The notes below the pieces were generated by a model, which saw only the letters and a list, made by a program, of their open reading frames with translations, ran no database searches and was not told the origin of the DNA. From contig JAHFGV010000006.1 in NCBI GenBank assembly GCA_023247255.1, forward strand, positions 14,231 through 78,230: a stretch of 64,000 bases of DNA, read 5' to 3'. Positions within the stretch are counted from its first letter, which is position 1. Each line of letters starts with the position of its first letter. This document shows, piece by piece, positions 2,508 to 38,553 of this stretch. Made by a program: the position numbers and the translations under genes. Origin of the DNA: Candidatus Omnitrophota bacterium. GTDB lineage: Bacteria; Omnitrophota; Gorgyraeia; Aquiviventales; Aquiviventaceae.

Positions 2508-3052
2508 GAGAGCTAAATCCTGCTTGTGAATTTAAAAAGCGCTTGAGTAAGATGTCTAGCGTGGTTTGGTTTTGGATTATTGTTGCTGGAGCGACAGCGT
2601 TTGCATTGGGCAACATCAAGTACCCGTTGGCGCGTGAAGCTGAGAAAAAGCGAGCTATGACCTCAATGGCTGTCTCTTTATTGCAGCCAGAATTGGAAGC
2701 CAATCTTGAGTTGGTTAAACGTACAAAACGATTACTTAGCGAGGACCCGCCACAGGTTGCTTTGCAAAGTTTCAATACAGCTGCTTGGGAGACGGTTTCG
2801 AGTAGCGAATTGCTCTTAGGCTTGGATTCCGAAAAATTAAGTCGTCTAATGCGAGCCTATCATCTTGTGAAACAAGCTAACCATCTACATGGCTGGATGG
2901 AAGAAAATACGCTCGGTATTTCGTCTGTTGTAAAGGGAGAAGCGCGAGGGAAAAACAAGGAAGCGCTAGTCAAAGGCTTGTCTGAAAACCTGGATAAACT
3001 TGAACCGCTACTATTAACTTCAATCCAAGATGTTCAAGGCGAAGGAGAATAA
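2504..3052 (+). CDS. Hypothetical membrane-anchored protein (start may be the internal Met at 2553, MSSVVWFWIIVAGATAFAL)
   Basis: One N-terminal hydrophobic helix followed by a charged helical region; ATGA overlap with the upstream ORF. Confidence 0.4.
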   Translation: MRELNPACEFKKRLSKMSSVVWFWIIVAGATAFALGNIKYPLAREAEKKRAMTSMAVSLLQPELEANLELVKRTKRLLSEDPPQVALQSFNTAAWETVSSSELLLGLDSEKLSRLMRAYHLVKQANHLHGWMEENTLGISSVVKGEARGKNKEALVKGLSENLDKLEPLLLTSIQDVQGEGE

Positions 3053-3312
3053 TTTGTTCGTTTACTTGAGTCTCGGATCTCAAGTCGGATGTCTGTGGAC
3101 TATCGACTGTAGACGGTGGACTAACAGATGCCAGTGACGAAGTCGACTACTACGAGATTCTGGGGTGGTGAAGGACACCTCGGTGGAGGATCACAGCGAC
3201 GGCTGAGCGGCTGCAGACAATTGCGGCAGTGAGCGGAAGGCATTCAAGCGGATAGGTGAAGGAGTGATGGCATCCACGCAGGAAGCCCAGATGGTCATTC
3301 AGCCCGCAGAAG

Positions 3313-9570: not shown

Positions 9571-9811
9571 GTGGGCTTTTGCAAAAATAGCCAACGCGTT
9601 GACCGAGTGTTATGTCCTATTCCAAGAGAAGCAATGAGGATTGTGTCATGTTTCATGAGTCATGTGTCATGAAAAAGCAGAAAATAAACAGGTATCTCAA
9701 GCATAGCCAAAGGGGCTCTTTTGCTTTCCATGACTCATGACACATAACACATGACTCATGACACAGACGTGAGCGCTGCCACTAATCTCGATGCATTTTG
9801 CAAAACCTCAG
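9571..9811 (+). mobile_element. MITE-like element, intact copy, + orientation; TSD TTAAAA
   Basis: Same termini (GTGGGCTTTTGCAAAAATAGCC ... GCATTTTGCAAAACCTCAG). TTAAAA at 9565-9570 (includes the accD stop codon) and at 9812-9817. About 97% identical to the copy at 8357. Confidence 0.8.
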
Positions 9812-15540: not shown

Positions 15541-18500
15541 GTGAAACGATCGCTCTGTGGGTTACTGGTCTTGTGTGCGGCTTTCACCCTGGGTGTCTCT
15601 GCCTGGGCCTCTGACGCAGACGTTACCCATCATTGGCAGCGAGCCAAGCACCTGTTAAAGGAAGGCGACTATCAAGGGGCATTGGATTCCCTAGAGCAAA
15701 TCCTTTCGCTCAACCCCGATGATTTACTGGCCCAGGGATACCGGAGTCTTTGCGAACAACGTTTGAGAGATCCTCGGTCGATCAAACAACTTTCTCCATC
15801 GGAACTTTCGAAGCTGGAGAATAGACTTCGTCAGGAAGCACAGGCGCAGCGGAAGGCGAGCAGCCAGCAAAAAATTAGAGAACGAACATTCCGCATTGAA
15901 CAACGCCAGTGGGACCAGAAGCTTTCTGCCCAAAGGCGGCAAGCTCAACAGACCCAACAAACCCACGCCCCTCCCAAACAACAGAGCCTTCCTGTAACGG
16001 ATAAGCAGCAGAAAGAATCCCCACCTCTTGAGTCGACTCTGCTCCAAGAACAGGATAAATCGGTGTCTGAAGCGGCTTTGGAAGAAGCTGTTCCAGACGC
16101 AAATGAAACGCCTCCCTTAGAAACAAGCACCCCTGTAATCGAATCCCGCCAACAGAAACTTGAAGACGTTGCGGCAAGCCTGCCCCATCAGAGAGACACT
16201 GCCTCTGACCGTGGGCACCAGGATGTGCCTCCTGGATCGCGTGGACAGGATGTCGCCCCACCTACAGAACAAGAATTGGAATCACTGCCTTCACGGTCCG
16301 AAGAAGAATCTGTCGGCCTTAAGTCCGACGAGCAAAAGGAACAAGATGAGGAAAAAGTGGAGATTCACGCCGACCAAATGATCGTCTCCCCTGAGCGAAA
16401 ACGAGCCACTGCACAAGGCGATGTGGAATTAGAATACGGTTCCATAACCATGACCTGTGACCGGATGACCCTGTTCACCGATACCCATGATCTTTATGCG
16501 CAAGGAGACGTGTGGATCAAAGATGGCCAGAAGATCTTTCAGGGCCAGGCCATGCACACTAACACCGATACGAAAAAAGGCCGATTCCTTCAAGGACGCC
16601 TCGCCTCTTTGCCATGGTATGAATCCGGTCGGCTCATCGAGCAGATCAGCGAAGGGGTGTATCGGGTTCACTCCGGGGAGTTTACTTCCTGTGATCACGA
16701 GCCGCCTCACTTTAAGTTTACGGCGCGCCAGGCCACTGTCTTTGGCGATGACAGCATCGTCCGCGCGCGACATGCGAGTCTGCGGGTGGGTAACATGCCT
16801 GTTCTTTATTTACCCTGGCTGTCCGTTGCGGACCGACGATCCCCATTCTACATTATTCCAGGCAAACGAAAGCCCTGGGGAGAATATACCTTGATGGGAT
16901 ATCGTTATGAGTTACCCGAACAACCTGGCTCCCTTCGCCAGCAGGGTACGTTAAAAGTCGATTGGAGGCGCTATTTTGGATGGGGGGTGGGTTGGGACCA
17001 CCAGATCGAATCCGACACCCTGGGCAGCGGACTGCTCAAGACTTACTACAATGACGAGCCCAACCAGAGAGAACCCAAAAGCGCTCATCCTAAGGGTGCG
17101 GAAATCAATCGCTACCGCCTACTTTGGCGCCACCTTTGGAGGCCTCGCGAAGATACGGTGGTGTTGACAGACATTCAGGAATTCAGCGACGTGAATTTCC
17201 GGAAGGAGCTTTTATTCCAGGAGGAGTTCGTGAATGACGATCAACCGGAGAGTTTCATTTCTTCCGTTACTTCCATGAGCGCTTATACGTTCAGCGGCCT
17301 GTTGCGAAAACGGATGAACCGTTTTCAAACAGTGACTGAGGCGCTTCCTCAAATGACCGTGGATGTCCGTCCGCAGCGCTTGGGCAGAAGCCAGTTCTAC
17401 ACGGACAGCCATCTGGATTTCGCAAACTTCCAGACAGTACGCGCCCATTCGGATAACGATACGGATGTGGTGCGCGTGGACTGGCTGCAGCAATTGAGTT
17501 ACGCTCTGAATTGGTTCCGTCCCATAGAGATCACGCCCAGAGCAGGCATCCGCCAGACGTATTACACCAAGGATAAGCAGGGAGGCAGCGAAAGACCGGA
17601 TGGTATGCGGAATCTTATCAGCGGCCAGCTATCGTTTGGAACCGATGCAAGCCTCAAGCTTTTTCGGATCTTTCCGGTTGTTACCAACTGGTTGGGGCTG
17701 GATTTGTTCTGGCTGCGTCATGTGTTGACCCCGACGATCAGCTATCAGTATACGCACCAGCCCACCGTGCCCAATAGCTTGTTGGAATTTCCAACTGCCG
17801 GTTCCCCCGCAAATACTCTGACGTTTGGCATTGAAAACAAGTTACAAACCAGACGTTCCGATGCCGGCACTTCCCGCCACAACGTAGATCTGGCACGTTT
17901 TCTGGTGTCCCTACCCTATACCTTTCGCGGGAATGCGAACAAACAAGGAGGACGATTGGGTAATTGGGCTTTCGATTTAGAGATCACCCCTTGGCGGTGG
18001 ATGCGCCTCGAAGCCGACTGGAGCTATCGAACGATTTTTCCAAAAGGACAGTCTGATTCCCGAGTGCCCGGTTTCAATCTTGACTGGGTGGTAACCGGTG
18101 GGGCAGGCGATCGACAGCTTTCGGTAACGCAGCTTCCCAAACTTCAGGCCCCTGAGCCTGGGCAATTTGGAGTCGAGAGGCTTGAGCTCACCCAGATGAT
18201 GCCCAAAGGCCAATGGTACCTCGGGCTGGGACACCGTTATTCACATAACGATAAGACCGAGGCCGTGTTACAGTGGGACTGGCAGGCGACGGAGAAATGG
18301 CAGATCGGGACTTTCCACCGCTTGACATGGAAAGAAGCCATCGGGGGTTCCAAACGCTTTTATAACTTCCGTGAATATCAATACCGGCTGCGCCGGGATT
18401 TGCACGATTGGATTGCGGAATTGAGCTACCACGTCGATCGCGAGTTCGGTGAGGAACTCTTTTTTATAATGACCCTGAAGGCCTTTCCTCAAATGCCCCT

Positions 18501-18594
18501 GTCGCTGGGTGACTCCTATCATCAGCCTAAGATCGGTTCTCAAAACGATCCTTTTTCTCCCATGCGCAGCCAGCATCCCACCCCTGTTAATTAG
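15541..18594 (+). CDS. lptD: LPS-assembly outer-membrane protein LptD (OstA) with an unusually long N-terminal extension
   Basis: Signal peptide, then a TPR-like segment and a ~200-aa Q/E/P-rich low-complexity region, then the OstA N-domain (DQMIVSPERKRATAQGDVELEYGSITMTCDRM...) and a large C-terminal beta-barrel region; GTG start. Confidence 0.65.
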   Translation: MKRSLCGLLVLCAAFTLGVSAWASDADVTHHWQRAKHLLKEGDYQGALDSLEQILSLNPDDLLAQGYRSLCEQRLRDPRSIKQLSPSELSKLENRLRQEAQAQRKASSQQKIRERTFRIEQRQWDQKLSAQRRQAQQTQQTHAPPKQQSLPVTDKQQKESPPLESTLLQEQDKSVSEAALEEAVPDANETPPLETSTPVIESRQQKLEDVAASLPHQRDTASDRGHQDVPPGSRGQDVAPPTEQELESLPSRSEEESVGLKSDEQKEQDEEKVEIHADQMIVSPERKRATAQGDVELEYGSITMTCDRMTLFTDTHDLYAQGDVWIKDGQKIFQGQAMHTNTDTKKGRFLQGRLASLPWYESGRLIEQISEGVYRVHSGEFTSCDHEPPHFKFTARQATVFGDDSIVRARHASLRVGNMPVLYLPWLSVADRRSPFYIIPGKRKPWGEYTLMGYRYELPEQPGSLRQQGTLKVDWRRYFGWGVGWDHQIESDTLGSGLLKTYYNDEPNQREPKSAHPKGAEINRYRLLWRHLWRPREDTVVLTDIQEFSDVNFRKELLFQEEFVNDDQPESFISSVTSMSAYTFSGLLRKRMNRFQTVTEALPQMTVDVRPQRLGRSQFYTDSHLDFANFQTVRAHSDNDTDVVRVDWLQQLSYALNWFRPIEITPRAGIRQTYYTKDKQGGSERPDGMRNLISGQLSFGTDASLKLFRIFPVVTNWLGLDLFWLRHVLTPTISYQYTHQPTVPNSLLEFPTAGSPANTLTFGIENKLQTRRSDAGTSRHNVDLARFLVSLPYTFRGNANKQGGRLGNWAFDLEITPWRWMRLEADWSYRTIFPKGQSDSRVPGFNLDWVVTGGAGDRQLSVTQLPKLQAPEPGQFGVERLELTQMMPKGQWYLGLGHRYSHNDKTEAVLQWDWQATEKWQIGTFHRLTWKEAIGGSKRFYNFREYQYRLRRDLHDWIAELSYHVDREFGEELFFIMTLKAFPQMPLSLGDSYHQPKIGSQNDPFSPMRSQHPTPVN

Positions 18595-25870: not shown

Positions 25871-25893
25871 CAAACAGCACATAGCACTTAGTA

Positions 25894-26157
25894 CTGGGCT
25901 TTTGCAAAAATAGCCAACGCGTCGACCGAGTATTGTGTCCTATTCCAAGAGAAGCAATGAGGATTGTGTCATGTTCCTAAGATCCAGTACTCACGTCTGT
26001 GTCATGTTTCATGTATCATGAAAAAGCAGAAAATAAACAGGTACCTCAAGCACGGCCAAAGTACGCCTTTTGCTTTCCATGACTCATGACACATGAAACA
26101 TGAAACAGTCCTTCATGACACCTGACACATGACTCATGAAACAGACGTAAGTACTGG
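25894..26157 (+). mobile_element. MITE-like element, variant copy with internal ~27-bp insertion and truncated or rearranged 3' end
   Basis: 5' end CTGGGCTTTTGCAAAAATAGCCAACGCGTCGACC; internal TCCTAAGATCCAGTACTCACGTCTGT insertion shared with the copy at 63502; the 3' TIR is not recognisable. Confidence 0.7.
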
Positions 26158-26254
26158 AGCTTAGGATCATGATTTACTTTCTTCTTGGCACTGGTCGTTT
26201 TCCCTTATCTCTCCCCCCACACCCCGCGCCCCTTATTGGTACTGCTCACTAACA

Positions 26255-27373: not shown

Positions 27374-27403
27374 AACCGCCGCTTGACGGACTACTGGAAA
27401 AAT

Positions 27404-28348
27404 ATGCAGATTCTAATTACAGGGGGAGCTGGATTTATAGGATCGCACTTGTGCGATCGGTTTATTGCGGATAAGCACAAGGTGATCTGCGTGGACAATT
27501 TCATCACCGGTGTTGAAGCCAACATCGCTCATCTCATTGGACGTCCTGCCTTCCGTCTTATTCGCCACGACATTACAAAACCTCTCGAGATTTCCGATTC
27601 TCTCGACTATGTGCTGCACTTTGCTTCTCCCGCAAGTCCCATCGATTATCTGAAATACCCCATTCAAACGCTTAAGGTAGGATCCCTGGGAACCCTAAAC
27701 GCTTTAGGCATTGCCAAAGCGAAAAGAGCGAAGTTTCTCCTGGCCTCAACATCCGAAGTCTACGGTGATCCTCAAGTTCATCCTCAGCCAGAGACCTACT
27801 GGGGCCATGTGAATCCGGTTGGACCTCGAGGAGTTTACGATGAAGCCAAGCGGTGTTCTGAGGCTTTCACCATGGCCTATCATCGGGAACACGGGCTGGA
27901 TAGTCGCATCGTCAGAATCTTCAACACCTATGGTCCCCGGATGCGAATGAACGATGGTCGTGCCATTCCCGCATTCATCACGCAGGCGCTGGAGGCAAAG
28001 CCCTTGACCGTTTTTGGAGATGGTTCTCAGACCCGAAGTTTCTGTTATATCGATGATCTCATTGAGGGTATCGTCAGGCTAATGGCCGCCGATTTCAATG
28101 ATCCTGTCAATCTGGGCAATGCCGAGGAATGGACGATTGCCCAACTGGCCCAGGCCGTTTTAAAACTCATCCAGGGCTCGGCAGATGCCTTGAAATTCCA
28201 GCCTCTTCCGATCGACGACCCCAGACAACGCAGGCCTGATTTGGCTCAGGCAAAGAGCTTGCTGAAATGGGAGCCCAAGGTTAGCCTCAAGGAAGGGCTG
28301 ACGAGCACCGTCGGGTGGTTTCGGCAACAACTGCCGATTGCTCGATGA
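27404..28348 (+). CDS. uxs: UDP-glucuronate decarboxylase (UDP-xylose synthase)
   Basis: [60 protein letters not shown]: near-canonical UXS motifs. Confidence 0.8.
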
Positions 28349-28938
28349 TGGACGTTGCCTCTCAGGGTGGTTTGCCTTCACGCTTTTATGGCTTCAAAGT
28401 ATCCCTCCGCGTTTGTCTGCTGAATTTCAGTAGTGTCCCATTGTTTTTGAGATTTTATTGCTCTTCTCGTCGATAAAGTTCGCCGAAACGGTTGAATCGA
28501 CTTCAAGCAAAGATCATGTTTTTATGACAGAGCTCAACGAGAACGCCTTCGAAAATTGAAACGTTGGGACAGCAGTGGCTGAATTTAGGGTATTCCATAC
28601 GACCTACGTTCGGAAGATCTCTTCTCCGGAGAGAGTAAGTCTGAATCCTACCACAAGCTGGAAGTTCAGAGTTGTTAACGGAAGCCTTCAAGACGATTCG
28701 ATGCTCAGCCTCAATGGTATTAACATTCCAGCGATAAATAAACCTATTGCATAATTGGTTTTTCAAGCACCACGTCCGACAGAGTTTGAGCACAGAAAAC
28801 TTATTGCGCAACAGGTCTAATGTGTGATTGCAAGAGCTGACCCCTTCTTCTTGGAGTAGTCCAAATAACCTGTGCTTGTGCAAGTTGCAGACTACAAGCC
28901 TCAAGATCAAAGAGCATCTAGGGTGAAGTTAGCGGACA

Positions 28939-29916
28939 ATGTGTAGAAAAATTGGGAATATCTTTGTATTGGGTAGTGGATTTTCTGCCAGTTGCGGACT
29001 GCCGACACAGGCAGGGCTTTTTAAAGCGCTAATAAACCAAGCGGATCCCAAGGATGTTCCACGATTGCGGAACATGCTGAAGCTTTTCTTCCCGCATATC
29101 GATGAAACTGCCGACAGCTATCCCCCGTTTGAACAATTCCTGAGCCTGCTGACGGCATCGCTGGATCTCTCCTCTGATGAAGAGGGGTCCTTGGCTATGT
29201 TCCCACGCGAGCAACAGGAGAAAGTTCGACAATACTGTCTCCGCCAGCTCCGGATGGTACTGGTCGACAGGAGCGAATCATACCGTAAAAACGAATCAGC
29301 GATCCAAAAATTTGTAAGGTGCTTGAAGACAGGAGACACAATCATTACGTTCAATTGGGATGTTCTCATCGAACAAGCACTCCGTCACGCCAAGAAGAAC
29401 TTCGGATTCTTTTCTCATGCAGACATCACGCTACTGAAGCTTCATGGAAGCTTGGGCTGGTATCTCTTAAAGGACATTGACCGTGACAAACTTCTCGAGT
29501 TTGACAAATTTGACGAAACTTTGGGTGCCTTAAAGCCTGAACACCTCAACTCTCTTCTCGACGTGCCGTCATTGCCCTATATTGTCACTCCGGAACACCA
29601 AAAAAGACCATCAGAGAGACGGGCGATGAGGCCTATCTGGGAGCAGGCATATGATAGGCTGGGGCGAGCAGCGAGAGAGGAAGGTAGTAAGGTTGTGGTT
29701 GTTGGTTATTCCCTTCCTCCGGAAGATTTCGATGCAAGGTTGCTCATGCGAATGGGCATTGGCGCTTGCGGGGACGACAAGAAGATGCTCCACATCATTG
29801 ATCCGGACACTGAGGTTAAAGCTCGCTACTCCTCTTGTATTACTTCTAACATCAAGTTTTACCAGGGGCGCTTCACTGGAGATGAGCTGCCGAAGATATT
29901 AGCTGAAGACTCATAG
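28939..29916 (+). CDS. Solitary SIR2-like (SIR2_2/DUF4020-type) domain protein, 325 aa
   Basis: NIFVLGSGFSASCGLP (NAD-binding GxGxS), ITFNWDVLIE (TxNxD) and LKLHGSLGWY (HG motif) in the spacing characteristic of defence-associated SIR2_2 domains. In-frame stop 9 bp upstream of the ATG. Local GC is ~10% below its surroundings. Confidence 0.65.
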   Translation: MCRKIGNIFVLGSGFSASCGLPTQAGLFKALINQADPKDVPRLRNMLKLFFPHIDETADSYPPFEQFLSLLTASLDLSSDEEGSLAMFPREQQEKVRQYCLRQLRMVLVDRSESYRKNESAIQKFVRCLKTGDTIITFNWDVLIEQALRHAKKNFGFFSHADITLLKLHGSLGWYLLKDIDRDKLLEFDKFDETLGALKPEHLNSLLDVPSLPYIVTPEHQKRPSERRAMRPIWEQAYDRLGRAAREEGSKVVVVGYSLPPEDFDARLLMRMGIGACGDDKKMLHIIDPDTEVKARYSSCITSNIKFYQGRFTGDELPKILAEDS

Positions 29917-30122
29917 TGATCAAATCAACCGTTGGTCATAGATTGGGAAGAAATTCCGGTGACACAGACAGAAAAACTGAGGCGTTTCTGCGGAGGATGT
30001 ACCGGGGTTTTCAATTTGCTGCGCCTCGCTGCTGGAAAATCAGGGACGGGTCTATTTTCTGGGCGGGACTGGGGAGGACGTGACATGAGTCAGGATCATC
30101 GCAAGCGCTTCGGAGTCGATTC

Positions 30123-31010
30123 ATGAAGGTCGTGATTCTCTGTGGAGGATTGGGCACGCGCCTGCGGGAAGAAACCGAGTATCGACCCAAACCCATGGTG
30201 CCAATCGGGGGACGGCCGATCCTGTGGCACATCATGAACCGGTATGCGGCTTACGGGTTTCATGAGTTTGTCTTGTGCCTGGGATACAAGGCGCACATGA
30301 TCAAAGATTATTTTTTGCACTTCCGGACAGAAACGAGCGATTTCACGCTGCGTTTGGGCCAGGGCCACCAGGCGATTGAATACCACAGTCCCCAGCATGA
30401 ACGCGACTGGGTAATTACGTTTGCCGATACCGGAGAGCAGACGATGACCGGAGGCCGTGTCAAACGTATCGAGCAATATGTCGATGGGGATACGTTCATG
30501 CTGACCTACGGGGATGGGTTGGCGGATATCGATATAGCCGAGGGGATCCGTTTTCATAGGCAACACGGCCGGATGGGGACGGTGACCAGCGTGCATCCGG
30601 GAACCGGGCGATTTGGTGAGCTCGTCTTGGCTGGCTCCGAGGTCAGGGATTTTATCGAGAAGCCGGATCAGCACGAAGGATACGTCAGTGGAGGTTTTTT
30701 TATCTTCGAACGGGCGTTCTTCCGATACCTGCAGGAGGACGATCTGTGCGTCCTGGAGCGCGAACCACTCCAGCGTCTTGCGCGGGACGGTCAATTGATG
30801 GCTTATCGTCATCACGGCTACTGGCAGTGCATGGACACCTACCGTGACTATCAACAGCTCAATGAGATTTGGCATCAGGGACAAGCGCCTTGGGGTATAA
30901 TCAAACATGCTTCTGAGGCACCTGCAGGGACCAAGCGCAGTCACCGATCGGGCTCCCCAAACGTTGCACAACCCTTGCGGACATCCCCGGCTCGATCTGA
31001 ATCTCAATGA
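30123..31010 (+). CDS. rfbF: Glucose-1-phosphate cytidylyltransferase
   Basis: MKVVILCGGLGTRLREETEYRPKPMVPIGGRPILWHIM...: DdhA/RfbF signature throughout. Confidence 0.8.
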   Translation: MKVVILCGGLGTRLREETEYRPKPMVPIGGRPILWHIMNRYAAYGFHEFVLCLGYKAHMIKDYFLHFRTETSDFTLRLGQGHQAIEYHSPQHERDWVITFADTGEQTMTGGRVKRIEQYVDGDTFMLTYGDGLADIDIAEGIRFHRQHGRMGTVTSVHPGTGRFGELVLAGSEVRDFIEKPDQHEGYVSGGFFIFERAFFRYLQEDDLCVLEREPLQRLARDGQLMAYRHHGYWQCMDTYRDYQQLNEIWHQGQAPWGIIKHASEAPAGTKRSHRSGSPNVAQPLRTSPARSESQ

Positions 31011-37241: not shown

Positions 37242-38293
37242 TCGAGGAAGACAACGCAATGCTATCCGAACGCACGAGTCGCCAGGCAATCACTTCTGTC
37301 AGTGCAAAAGCACCACCGCTTGTGTCGATCATCATTCCTGCGCGAAATGAAGCGGAGAATATCCCGCGGCTTGAAGCGGAATTATTAGCAACGGTCGATT
37401 CACTGCCCTACGCGTTTGAATTCCTCGTGATCGATAATGCCAGTGAAGATGGCACCGGAGCATTGCTCAAAGCCATCTGCGCTCGTGATCCTCGGTGGAA
37501 ATACATACGATTCAGCCGAGACTTCACGGTGGAAATGTCGCTGACGGCCGGATACCATCTCTGCTCTGGAGAAGCCATCATCGTCCTCCATTCCGACCTT
37601 CAGGATCCTCCAGAGACCATTCCGCGGTTTCTTGAGAAATGGCACGAGGGCTACGATGTCGTCTATGGGGTGCGAACCGTTAGACCTGGGGAGCCAACGT
37701 GGCGCAATGTGGCGGTTCATTGGGCTTACCGCTGCATTGCCTGGGCCTCAGACGTCCCAATTCCACTAGATGCTGGGGATTTTCGTCTCATCTCGAAACG
37801 AGTCAGGGATGCCCTGGAGCAGTGCGGGGAATACAACCGCTATATGCGGGGCTTGGTCGCTTGGCTCGGATTTCGGCAGGTGGGCATTCCCTATGAACGG
37901 AGGCCGAGGAAAGCGGGTAGGAGCAATGCCCCCTTCTGGCATTTGGTGTCGTTCACCTTCAATGCAATCACGAGTTTCTCTCTAAAACCGCTTCGGATGT
38001 TTACTTTTATGGGTCTGTTGCTACTACTGCTGTCGGTGGGTGCGCTTCCTATCTATGTCGTTCTCTACCTCATCGGCTCCCCGCCGCCGGGCATTACGAC
38101 CATTATCGTTTTATTATTTATCGGCATCGGCTTAAACAGCTTAGGCATTGGCATCTTGGGCGAGTATCTGGGCCGAACCTATGCCGAGGTGAAAAGAAGA
38201 CCCCTGTACCTCATTCAAGAAACGGTTAATGTGGATGCCCCTGCGATGTCACAGGAACTGGCTCTTTCAGGAAAGAGAGAGGATCTTAAATGA
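37238..38293 (+). CDS. GT2 polyprenyl-phosphate glycosyltransferase (GtrB/ArnC/DPM1-like) with C-terminal TM helices
   Basis: VSIIIPARNEAENI...VIDNASEDGT...LHSDLQDP (DxD) plus two C-terminal TM helices. The start could be 37259. Confidence 0.7.
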   Translation: MIEEDNAMLSERTSRQAITSVSAKAPPLVSIIIPARNEAENIPRLEAELLATVDSLPYAFEFLVIDNASEDGTGALLKAICARDPRWKYIRFSRDFTVEMSLTAGYHLCSGEAIIVLHSDLQDPPETIPRFLEKWHEGYDVVYGVRTVRPGEPTWRNVAVHWAYRCIAWASDVPIPLDAGDFRLISKRVRDALEQCGEYNRYMRGLVAWLGFRQVGIPYERRPRKAGRSNAPFWHLVSFTFNAITSFSLKPLRMFTFMGLLLLLLSVGALPIYVVLYLIGSPPPGITTIIVLLFIGIGLNSLGIGILGEYLGRTYAEVKRRPLYLIQETVNVDAPAMSQELALSGKREDLK

Positions 38294-38553
38294 TAACGGC
38301 TAAGCAACAGCAAGTCTTGGGATACATCACGCATTACGTCATGGAGCATCAGCGTGCGCCGCTGATCCGTGAGATTCAAGAAGGGTGTCAGATCAGGTCC
38401 TATAAATCCGCGATTGACCGTTTAAGCGCCCTGGAACGCAAGGGGATCATCAAGCGTCTTTCCAACAAGCATCGCGGCATCCGCTTGCTTCAACAACCCA
38501 CCGCAGGCTCCCCAGCCGTGGAAGCAGTCCCAGCCCTTCAGGAGGTTCGCTAA
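38290..38553 (+). CDS. Stand-alone LexA-type winged-helix DNA-binding domain protein (no S24 peptidase domain)
   Basis: MITAKQQQVLGYITHYVMEHQRAPLIREIQEGCQIRSYKSAIDRLSALERKGIIKR matches the LexA N-terminal DNA-binding domain pattern; only 87 aa. Confidence 0.5.
   Translation: MITAKQQQVLGYITHYVMEHQRAPLIREIQEGCQIRSYKSAIDRLSALERKGIIKRLSNKHRGIRLLQQPTAGSPAVEAVPALQEVR

Follow-up and report, generated by a model that had tools for sequence, protein, structure and literature searches.

A solitary SIR2 gene in a glycan operon of a Candidatus Omnitrophota bacterium, a candidate one-gene phage-defence effector

Defence proteins with a SIR2 catalytic domain of the SIRim type, such as ThsA of Thoeris, DSR1/DSR2 and SIR2-APAZ/pAgo (SPARSA), are expected to hydrolyse nicotinamide adenine dinucleotide (NAD+) and thereby to cause abortive infection. 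They have a fused sensor or ligand-binding domain (SLOG/Macro, C-terminal repeats or APAZ), an adjacent partner (ThsB or pAgo), or both. SIR2-HerA (Nezha / GAO_19) assembles into large complexes (PMC10973363), KomC (HAM-SIR2 of Kongming) works with KomA, KomB and a nucleotide signal, and defence systems are reported to be enriched 12-fold around genes of the SIRim clade (bioRxiv 10.1101/2024.09.18.613514). Two described proteins act from a single gene. AbiH of Lactococcus lactis is a SIR2-like abortive-infection protein with a proposed NAD-depleting pathway (PMC13064643), and sole-Sir2, a CRISPR-supervised stand-alone Sir2, is reported to convert NAD+ to ADP-ribose (ADPR) in vitro, and E. coli with a close homologue of sole-Sir2 to be protected against T2 and T4 (bioRxiv 10.1101/2024.12.27.630466); a lone Sir2 protein can thus be a complete defence system. 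Here we analyse a 64,000-nt stretch of contig JAHFGV010000006.1 from a Candidatus Omnitrophota bacterium (hereafter the window), in which an islet at 28349–30122 holds a solitary gene for a 325-aa SIR2 protein, a predicted NAD+ glycohydrolase (NADase). We judge it reasonably probable that the islet was inserted by horizontal transfer and brought in a single gene, whose product is an intact representative of a large family of defence-type SIR2 proteins that stand alone. By analogy with the described systems, the protein would most likely be a one-gene phage-defence effector and not the remnant of a two-gene system. The original prediction for this islet, made from the bare sequence, had taken it that SIR2 effectors come with a sensor domain or a partner in every case, a premise that the single-gene AbiH (PMC13064643) and sole-Sir2 (bioRxiv 10.1101/2024.12.27.630466) contradict.

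Compared with these systems, the window protein would stand nearest to AbiH and sole-Sir2 by its mode of action, and nearest to the SIR2 subunit of SIR2-HerA by its modelled structure. Like AbiH (~350 aa, carried on mobile elements), it comes from one gene, is SIR2-like throughout and has no partner or separate sensor domain. Unlike AbiH, it stays below the cut-off of the Pfam AbiH family; 35 of 38 family members match Pfam SIR2_2 (E<0.01, best 3e-9), so that the family is nearer to SIR2_2, and 8 of the 38 give weak AbiH matches (best 1.2e-5). The NAD-depleting mechanism of AbiH is itself a proposal. sole-Sir2 is set apart by its description: ~440 aa, a C-terminal Sir2 domain and an N-terminal substructure proposed as sensor. 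With the SIR2 protein of SIR2-HerA, its best structural match, the window protein shares a similar size (~340–400 aa in SIR2-HerA) and the GxGxS, TxNxD and HG motifs; in contrast to that system, identity is 13–17%, and no herA gene lies in the window or is conserved beside family members.

KomC and human FAM118B/SIRanc resemble the window protein in being small and essentially a SIRim domain only, and several of the matching KomC/KomBC PDB entries are titled 'helical structure', which suggests activation by polymerisation. The partners and signal of KomC have no counterpart here, and FAM118B is eukaryotic. The catalytic domain and its expected NAD+ hydrolysis are shared with ThsA, DSR1/DSR2 and SPARSA, all of them among the Foldseek matches, unlike their sensors and partners: there is no SLOG or Macro domain and no ThsB as in Thoeris, no APAZ domain or adjacent pAgo as in SPARSA, and, at 325 aa, no room for the large C-terminal sensor region of the ~1,000-aa DSR1/DSR2. 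The family thus falls outside each named family by at least one defining feature and, judged by sequence, is an unnamed and so far uncharacterised clade of the SIRim superfamily.

Sequence, fold and active site of the SIR2 protein

The SIR2 gene (28939–29916, plus strand) starts with ATG and is complete, with stop codons on either side, confirming the 325-aa open reading frame (ORF) that had been placed between uxs and rfbF. Its three hallmark motifs are likewise present: GSGFS (residues 12–16, 28972–28986), the glycine-rich NAD-binding loop; TFNWD (residues 137–141, 29347–29361), with the predicted catalytic Asn139; and KLHGS (residues 167–171, 29437–29451), with the predicted catalytic His169. 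A fourth motif, GYSLP (residues 256–260, 29704–29718), forms a conserved strand-loop of the SIR2_2-type Rossmann fold. Conservation was read from a 38-sequence family alignment, which also underlies the AlphaFold2 model. Its invariant columns are P62, E65, T137, F138, N139, D141, E145, K167, H169, G170, S171, W174, P218, K222, W234, G256, Y257, S258, P260 and D263, while G12, G14 and S16, each kept by 90% or more of the 38 members, come close to invariance, so that the hallmark motifs rest on invariant or near-invariant family columns.

AlphaFold2 returned a confident single-domain model (predicted local distance difference test, pLDDT, 89.9; predicted template-modelling score, pTM, 0.90). From residue 8 onwards the protein is SIR2 domain; one such domain accounts for all 325 aa, and no SLOG, Macro or APAZ domain was found. 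In the model, a helical insertion at residues ~24–130 (helices 24–33, 40–50, 64–77 and 90–115) appears to be specific to the family. Foldseek against the PDB placed the SIR2 subunits of the E. coli and Ps SIR2-HerA complexes first (E=3e-12 to 1e-9, TM 0.6–0.66; the best match covers almost the full chain), followed by KomC, DSR2 and ThsA (E=1e-5 to 1e-6). Human sirtuins SIRT3/5 appeared only at E=4e-5 to 1e-3, with root-mean-square deviations of 9–15 Å. A sequence-profile search of the PDB agreed (KomC 3e-6, PsSIR2 1e-5, FAM118B 2e-3). Its alignments pair the GSGFS loop with the GAGVS loop of KomC, TFNWD with TTNYD of both KomC and PsSIR2, and GYSLP with IGYSL..D of KomC; H169 falls on KomC H146, the residue mutated in the deposited entry 'KomC(H146N), a SIR2-domain NADase'.

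Membership of the sirtuins was considered as well. Pfam SIR2 (PF02146) gave no match to the protein even at E≤1, and its cysteines (positions 2, 19, 100, 128, 277 and 300 only) form neither a CxxC motif nor a Zn-binding tetrad; on these two grounds it is not a housekeeping sirtuin, the outcome that would have refuted the original prediction. The protein is, by its sequence features and modelled fold, a SIR2 domain of the defence type (SIRim) with an intact predicted active site, as had been proposed, with SIR2-HerA as its nearest fold.

The islet between uxs and rfbF

The islet is bounded on the left by a uxs-like NAD-dependent epimerase/dehydratase gene (27383–28348, plus strand; Pfam Epimerase, E=6e-52) and on the right by an rfbF-like nucleotidyltransferase gene (30123–31010, plus strand; Pfam NTP_transferase, E=2e-18). 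A scan of JGI metagenomes with RfbF as query yielded 80 loci, the four closest of which (L092–L095) encode RfbF and UXS proteins 66–71% and 65–74% identical to those of the window. uxs lies immediately 5' of rfbF in all four, with a gap of 0–175 bp, and L092 retains the order epimerase-DegT-uxs-rfbF-rfbH. Nucleotide homology to the four loci ends within uxs (~28137–28300) and restarts at 30108–30123; the 206-bp spacer before rfbF (29917–30122) cannot be aligned with their uxs-rfbF spacers. tblastn of the SIR2 protein, and of a 135-aa ORF located upstream of its gene, found no match in any of the 80 RfbF loci. Because the junction of the relatives is short and SIR2-free, and because homology breaks off in uxs and resumes at rfbF, this comparison identifies the islet as a horizontally acquired insertion into a conserved uxs-rfbF junction. 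The expectation that relatives would lack the islet and keep the two genes adjacent is therefore borne out by L092–L095, though these are not close strains. In L092 (~3030–3065) and L093 (~1285–1320), the 175-bp uxs-rfbF spacer contains a strong GC-rich hairpin (CCTGCCTGCC...GGCAGGCAGG), which may be a terminator or attenuator; it lies at the insertion junction and has no equivalent in the window.

Base composition also sets the islet apart. The interval (1,774 bp) has a guanine-cytosine (GC) content of 47.6%, against a window mean of 53.7% (sd 2.1), and is the window's minimum at the 1,774-bp scale (2 of 1,245 sliding windows are lower). The SIR2 gene, at 48.6%, is the GC-poorest of the 27 genes sampled (54.4 ± 1.7); its GC at third codon positions (53.4 vs 58.9 ± 3.1) is only 1.8 sd low. 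The dip originally described is thus real, while the flanking cluster lies at ~53–56% GC and not at the ~58% given for it. Nor is the rest of the operon, described as tightly coupled, without gaps: a non-coding one of 384 bp lies between an epimerase gene and DegT (25871–26254, 44.5% GC) and measures ~50 bp in L092. Since other intergenic gaps here have GC contents between 34% and 53%, the 590-bp leader of the SIR2 gene (28349–28938, 44.4%) is ordinary non-coding DNA for this region, and its composition by itself is silent on foreign origin.

The islet recurs, base for base, in one ENA assembly and two Logan runs, which excludes an artefact of assembly. Its contig in ENA (k141_6271840, 83,578 bp) stops at about window position 9613, so the assembly from which the window was taken, of the same population, is the longer one. 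Boundaries of a mobile element were not found, the window containing no tRNA and no integrase gene. An inverted repeat at 28487–28500 / 29920–29933 (AACGGTTGAATCGA / TCAAATCAACCGTT; 12 of 14 bases complementary) encloses 438 bp of leader as well as the SIR2 gene, with its right arm beginning 4 nt past the stop codon. A repeat as good or better arose in 10 of 200 shuffles, and a comparable one was seen in just one other of eight homologue loci, with unrelated sequence. The repeat is probably due to chance, although it could mark the ends of a cassette. Carriage by phages or plasmids was also searched for, with 0 phage-genome matches, 2 weak plasmid matches, 10 distant IMG/VR matches and one weak PHROG of unknown function.

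An alternative origin of the solitary gene, proposed originally, is a two-gene system of which the islet is what remains, the partner having decayed into the 590-bp region or surviving as a 64-aa ORF (29932–30126) in the spacer. The length of the gap and the presence within it of a 135-aa ORF (28503–28910, minus strand, TTG start), its sole sizeable frame, speak for this reading. The source gene caller places no gene in either 28349–28938 or 29917–30122, in line with the earlier statement that the leader has no credible ORF; the minus-strand frame, which qualifies that statement, has no homologue among 5.8 billion proteins. Scanned in six frames, the 590 bp matched no PADLOC model at E≤10, hence no TIR, and in Pfam only PAN_4 at E=0.07, which is chance level. 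Rfam gave no match at E≤1, no tandem or dispersed repeat supports a decayed gene, and RNA folding on the two strands showed no excess over shuffled controls (z +0.83 and +0.48). By blastn and tblastx, the region resembles no DNA near any homologue in the fetched loci. On these negative results we reject a decayed partner in 28349–28938. Upstream gaps of 100–640 bp are usual for close homologues, and the GC content of this one is as elsewhere in the window. The 64-aa ORF was rejected as partner for its own reasons: searches of Pfam, PADLOC, NCBIfam and PHROGs gave no match to it, the source gene caller passes it over, and nothing similar lies beside homologues. As far as sequence comparison reaches, neither region is a partner or its remains, and the leader is plain non-coding DNA with nothing recognisable in it. 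With solitude also the rule for the family (see below), we regard descent from a two-gene system as highly improbable.

The position of the gene raises another alternative, namely that it is a component of the glycan pathway or a sirtuin deacetylase regulating it. The gene is indeed co-oriented with, and embedded among, NAD-dependent sugar-nucleotide enzymes. It is, however, absent from the four closest syntenic clusters, and family members at the other loci examined do not lie in glycan clusters; a sirtuin is further contradicted by the missing Zn-binding cysteines, the absent PF02146 match and the distance of sirtuins among the fold matches. Of all the explanations considered, we give this one the least credence.

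Relatives of the SIR2 gene and their neighbours

A word-indexed search of 5.8 billion proteins returned 388 relatives, nearly all of 300–370 aa and alignable end to end; the nearest is 56% identical and the next ~36–38%. A HMMER scan with the family profile across 1.84 billion 50%-identity representatives gave 706, 9,384 and 16,197 matches at E≤1e-30, 1e-10 and 1e-3, respectively, the latter two counts extending into the wider SIR2_2 superfamily. The best 150 matches are almost all 300–400 aa long and cover the entire profile. Among 185,579 species genomes, 367 stretches encode a relative; 80 of them were fetched, and 53 of these loci hold full-length single-domain members. The family spans Acidobacteriota, Omnitrophota, Planctomycetota, Chloroflexota, Bacillota, Bacteroidota, Pseudomonadota (Pandoraea, Shewanella) and other phyla, and loci from archaeal metagenome-assembled genomes are among the 80. 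Conservation of the active-site motifs over so many phyla indicates that the function of the family is under selection. One relative (P0006, 38% identical, at L085 6001–6912) is called as a 303-aa product without the N-terminal GSGFS loop and follows a 638-bp gap; either its start is miscalled, or this copy is 5'-truncated and inactive.

The neighbours of the family were compared at 78 loci. An all-vs-all comparison of four genes per side grouped 533 proteins into 500 clusters, the largest of which, a tyrosine integrase usually located immediately upstream, occurs in 6 loci; hflX (3 loci) and a few locus-specific sets follow. No Pfam family appears in more than 4 of 146 immediate neighbours, and the neighbours of the closer homologues described below are similar neither to one another nor to anything in the window. 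Two candidate partners were examined and dropped. HerA was sought among the large upstream neighbours, and those inspected proved to be HflX, terminase, IMPDH, peptidase, kinase and integrase; the small upstream genes of L085, L089 and L090 (127–136 aa), close in size to the 135-aa ORF, are mutually dissimilar and unlike anything in the window. A single-domain family without a conserved neighbour means that solitude is its normal state and not a sign of degradation, and the description of the SIR2 gene as solitary is supported.

PADLOC matches among the neighbours are scattered and include type I/III restriction-modification, one pAgo, mad2/mad3, QatD and PDC candidates. By the Pfam labels supplied with the data source, the closer homologues lie beside an integrase with a helix-turn-helix (HTH) protein and HicAB, ParE with an HTH protein, HicA, DUF2283 and HepT/MNT, a Phd antitoxin, or an integrase with two HEPN proteins. 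At L183 (120–7995), a 319-aa member (P0060) has a complete BilA-BilD ubiquitin-like module and RmuC upstream and a DarTG-like DarT/Macro pair downstream, the set being flanked by UvrD/PD-(D/E)xK and large helicase genes. Among the contexts examined, this densely packed defence island speaks most strongly for the family having a role in defence. These loci show the family moving one gene at a time, in many cases as cargo of an integrase or inside toxin-antitoxin or defence islets.

Such settings bear on two further alternatives. In the first, the window protein is an orphan effector that depends for its activation on a gene outside the window, be it for a HerA-like ATPase, a TIR/ThsB-type signal producer or a pAgo. 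The solved folds nearest to the protein belong to SIR2 subunits of SIR2-HerA, itself a two-gene system, its best PADLOC models are named 'SIR2', Aga_SIR2 models match family members too (ThsA models match only 1–2 of 38, weakly), and a pAgo gene adjoins 1 of 39 family loci scanned. Opposed to this are the lack of any such partner conserved beside the family at the 78 loci and the lack of a ligand- or partner-binding domain (SLOG, Macro or APAZ) in the protein. Partners in defence are normally adjacent, and so transferred together, whereas this family moves as a lone gene behind integrases. We therefore hold activation in trans to be unlikely.

The second alternative takes the gene for selfish or toxin-like cargo without a defence role, or for a silenced gene: a toxin of the toxin-antitoxin kind, an NAD-dependent ADP-ribosyltransferase or a regulator, brought in by recombination at a transfer-prone glycan locus. 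Close homologues often adjoin type II toxin-antitoxin genes, the window has no other defence gene and no promoter-like site upstream of the SIR2 gene, and SIR2-fold ADP-ribosyltransferases such as SirTM are among the weaker fold matches (8rsn). The adjoining toxin-antitoxin pairs are, however, complete in themselves and vary from locus to locus, so that no conserved cognate antitoxin is apparent; the active-site motifs are strictly conserved over many phyla, and defence NADases are far better fold matches than SirTM. To this alternative, too, we assign a low probability, about equal to that of a partner in trans.

Proposed action and glycan context

If the SIR2 protein is indeed a one-gene defence effector, it would be kept inactive until phage infection. 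Modelled on DSR2, ThsA, KomC and SIR2-HerA, the trigger might be a phage component binding directly to the helical insertion (~24–130), the formation of an oligomer or filament, or both; that the insertion serves as a sensing or assembly surface is speculation from the model. Once active, the protein would hydrolyse NAD+ and halt phage replication by abortive infection, as is proposed for AbiH and partly shown for sole-Sir2. Both kinds of trigger have precedents. The tail tube protein of a phage activates the NADase of DSR2, and DSAD1 is an anti-DSR2 protein (PMC13064643, PMC10973363); PDB entries show DSR2 in complex with a phage tail-tube protein and with phage-encoded DSAD1, and helical assemblies of ThsA and KomBC are deposited under titles that name them so. 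The role of a defence NADase is suggested by the behaviour of these structural relatives, by the enrichment of defence systems around SIRim genes and by the precedents of AbiH and sole-Sir2. A minimal system, as raised in the original prediction, is accordingly the best-supported reading of the islet, and AbiH and sole-Sir2 deprive it of the novelty then suggested.

A number of findings weigh against this explanation. Profile searches gave a mixed result: the PADLOC 'SIR2' models match the protein (best E=7e-9) and match family members remotely (PADLOC 2.0, best 2e-17), while Pfam SIR2_2 (PF13289), the family named in the original prediction, scores 21.1 bits against a gathering cut-off of 24.5 (E=3.5e-4), a shortfall that the matches of other family members attribute to divergence and not to another fold. 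Pfam AbiH (PF14253) reaches 15.3 bits against a cut-off of 30.9, over profile positions 1–172 of 260, and the NCBIfam equivalog SIR2_antiphage (NF042942) 14.2 bits against 500 required. NADase activity and phage protection are predicted from sequence and analogy, for this protein and for the whole family, and the nearest solved relative, the SIR2 subunit of SIR2-HerA, needs HerA; the partner search here spans the 64-kb window. Among the 47 window ORFs scanned there is no other defence gene, no herA and no mobile gene; the surroundings of the SIR2 gene do not form a defence island, and the glycan operon gives no independent support. Many family loci have purely housekeeping neighbours, and the tallies of defence and mobile neighbours are raw counts. 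The window also offers no support for a mechanism of insertion, be it an integrase, a tRNA or a convincing terminal repeat.

A broader claim can be advanced only tentatively, as a possibility we rate well below the single-gene insertion itself: the family may be a widespread, so far overlooked one-gene immune system of bacteria and archaea, comprising at least ~700 clusters at 50% identity, in which a bare SIR2 domain would be both sensor and effector and phage binding to residues ~24–130 would lead to polymerisation and NAD+ depletion. A weaker addition to it is that insertion into a surface-glycan operon, whose products can act as phage receptors, might couple SIR2 expression to that operon by read-through. 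All genes of the window lie on the plus strand, and no sigma-70-like promoter or terminator-like site was found in the 590-bp leader; two terminator-like sites between uxs and rfbF both lie inside the SIR2 coding sequence and are at chance expectation. With co-oriented genes and no terminator-like site outside the SIR2 coding sequence, transcription of the SIR2 gene by read-through is plausible, and the insertion need not be polar on rfbF.

Should the defence reading be true, the family would represent a further lineage of NAD+-depleting SIR2 immunity, unusually minimal at ~325 aa, with one domain and no partner. It would offer a convenient model for how a SIR2 NADase stays off and how a phage activates it, a question that also concerns AbiH and the stand-alone human SIRim proteins FAM118A/B. 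Metagenomes contain many members, and neither the PADLOC 2.0 models nor NCBIfam capture the family as a system, so censuses of defence systems probably miss it. For annotation, a solitary SIR2_2-like gene should not be taken for a broken Thoeris, HerA or pAgo system. The instance itself, one foreign gene in a glycan operon, is otherwise ordinary.

The surrounding region deserves a brief description of its own. From ~18679 to 51375 extends an unusually large, uniformly plus-strand nucleotide-sugar cluster with nine epimerase/dehydratase genes, four NeuB paralogues, three DegT aminotransferases and two UDP-glucose dehydrogenases, together with a thiamine pyrophosphate (TPP) enzyme followed by a ketopantoate hydroxymethyltransferase homologue, a LuxE acyl-protein synthetase and two ATP-grasp proteins. 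This content suggests several pathways for nonulosonic acids or heavily modified sugars. Directly 5' of the nucleotide-sugar genes lies a 1,017-aa ORF (15541–18594, plus strand) for which no Pfam family is recorded. An 87-aa protein with a winged-helix domain of the LexA_DNA_bind family (~38290–38553, plus strand; L001 19352–19615), encoded between genes for a glycosyltransferase and an epimerase, may be a local regulator within the glycan cluster.

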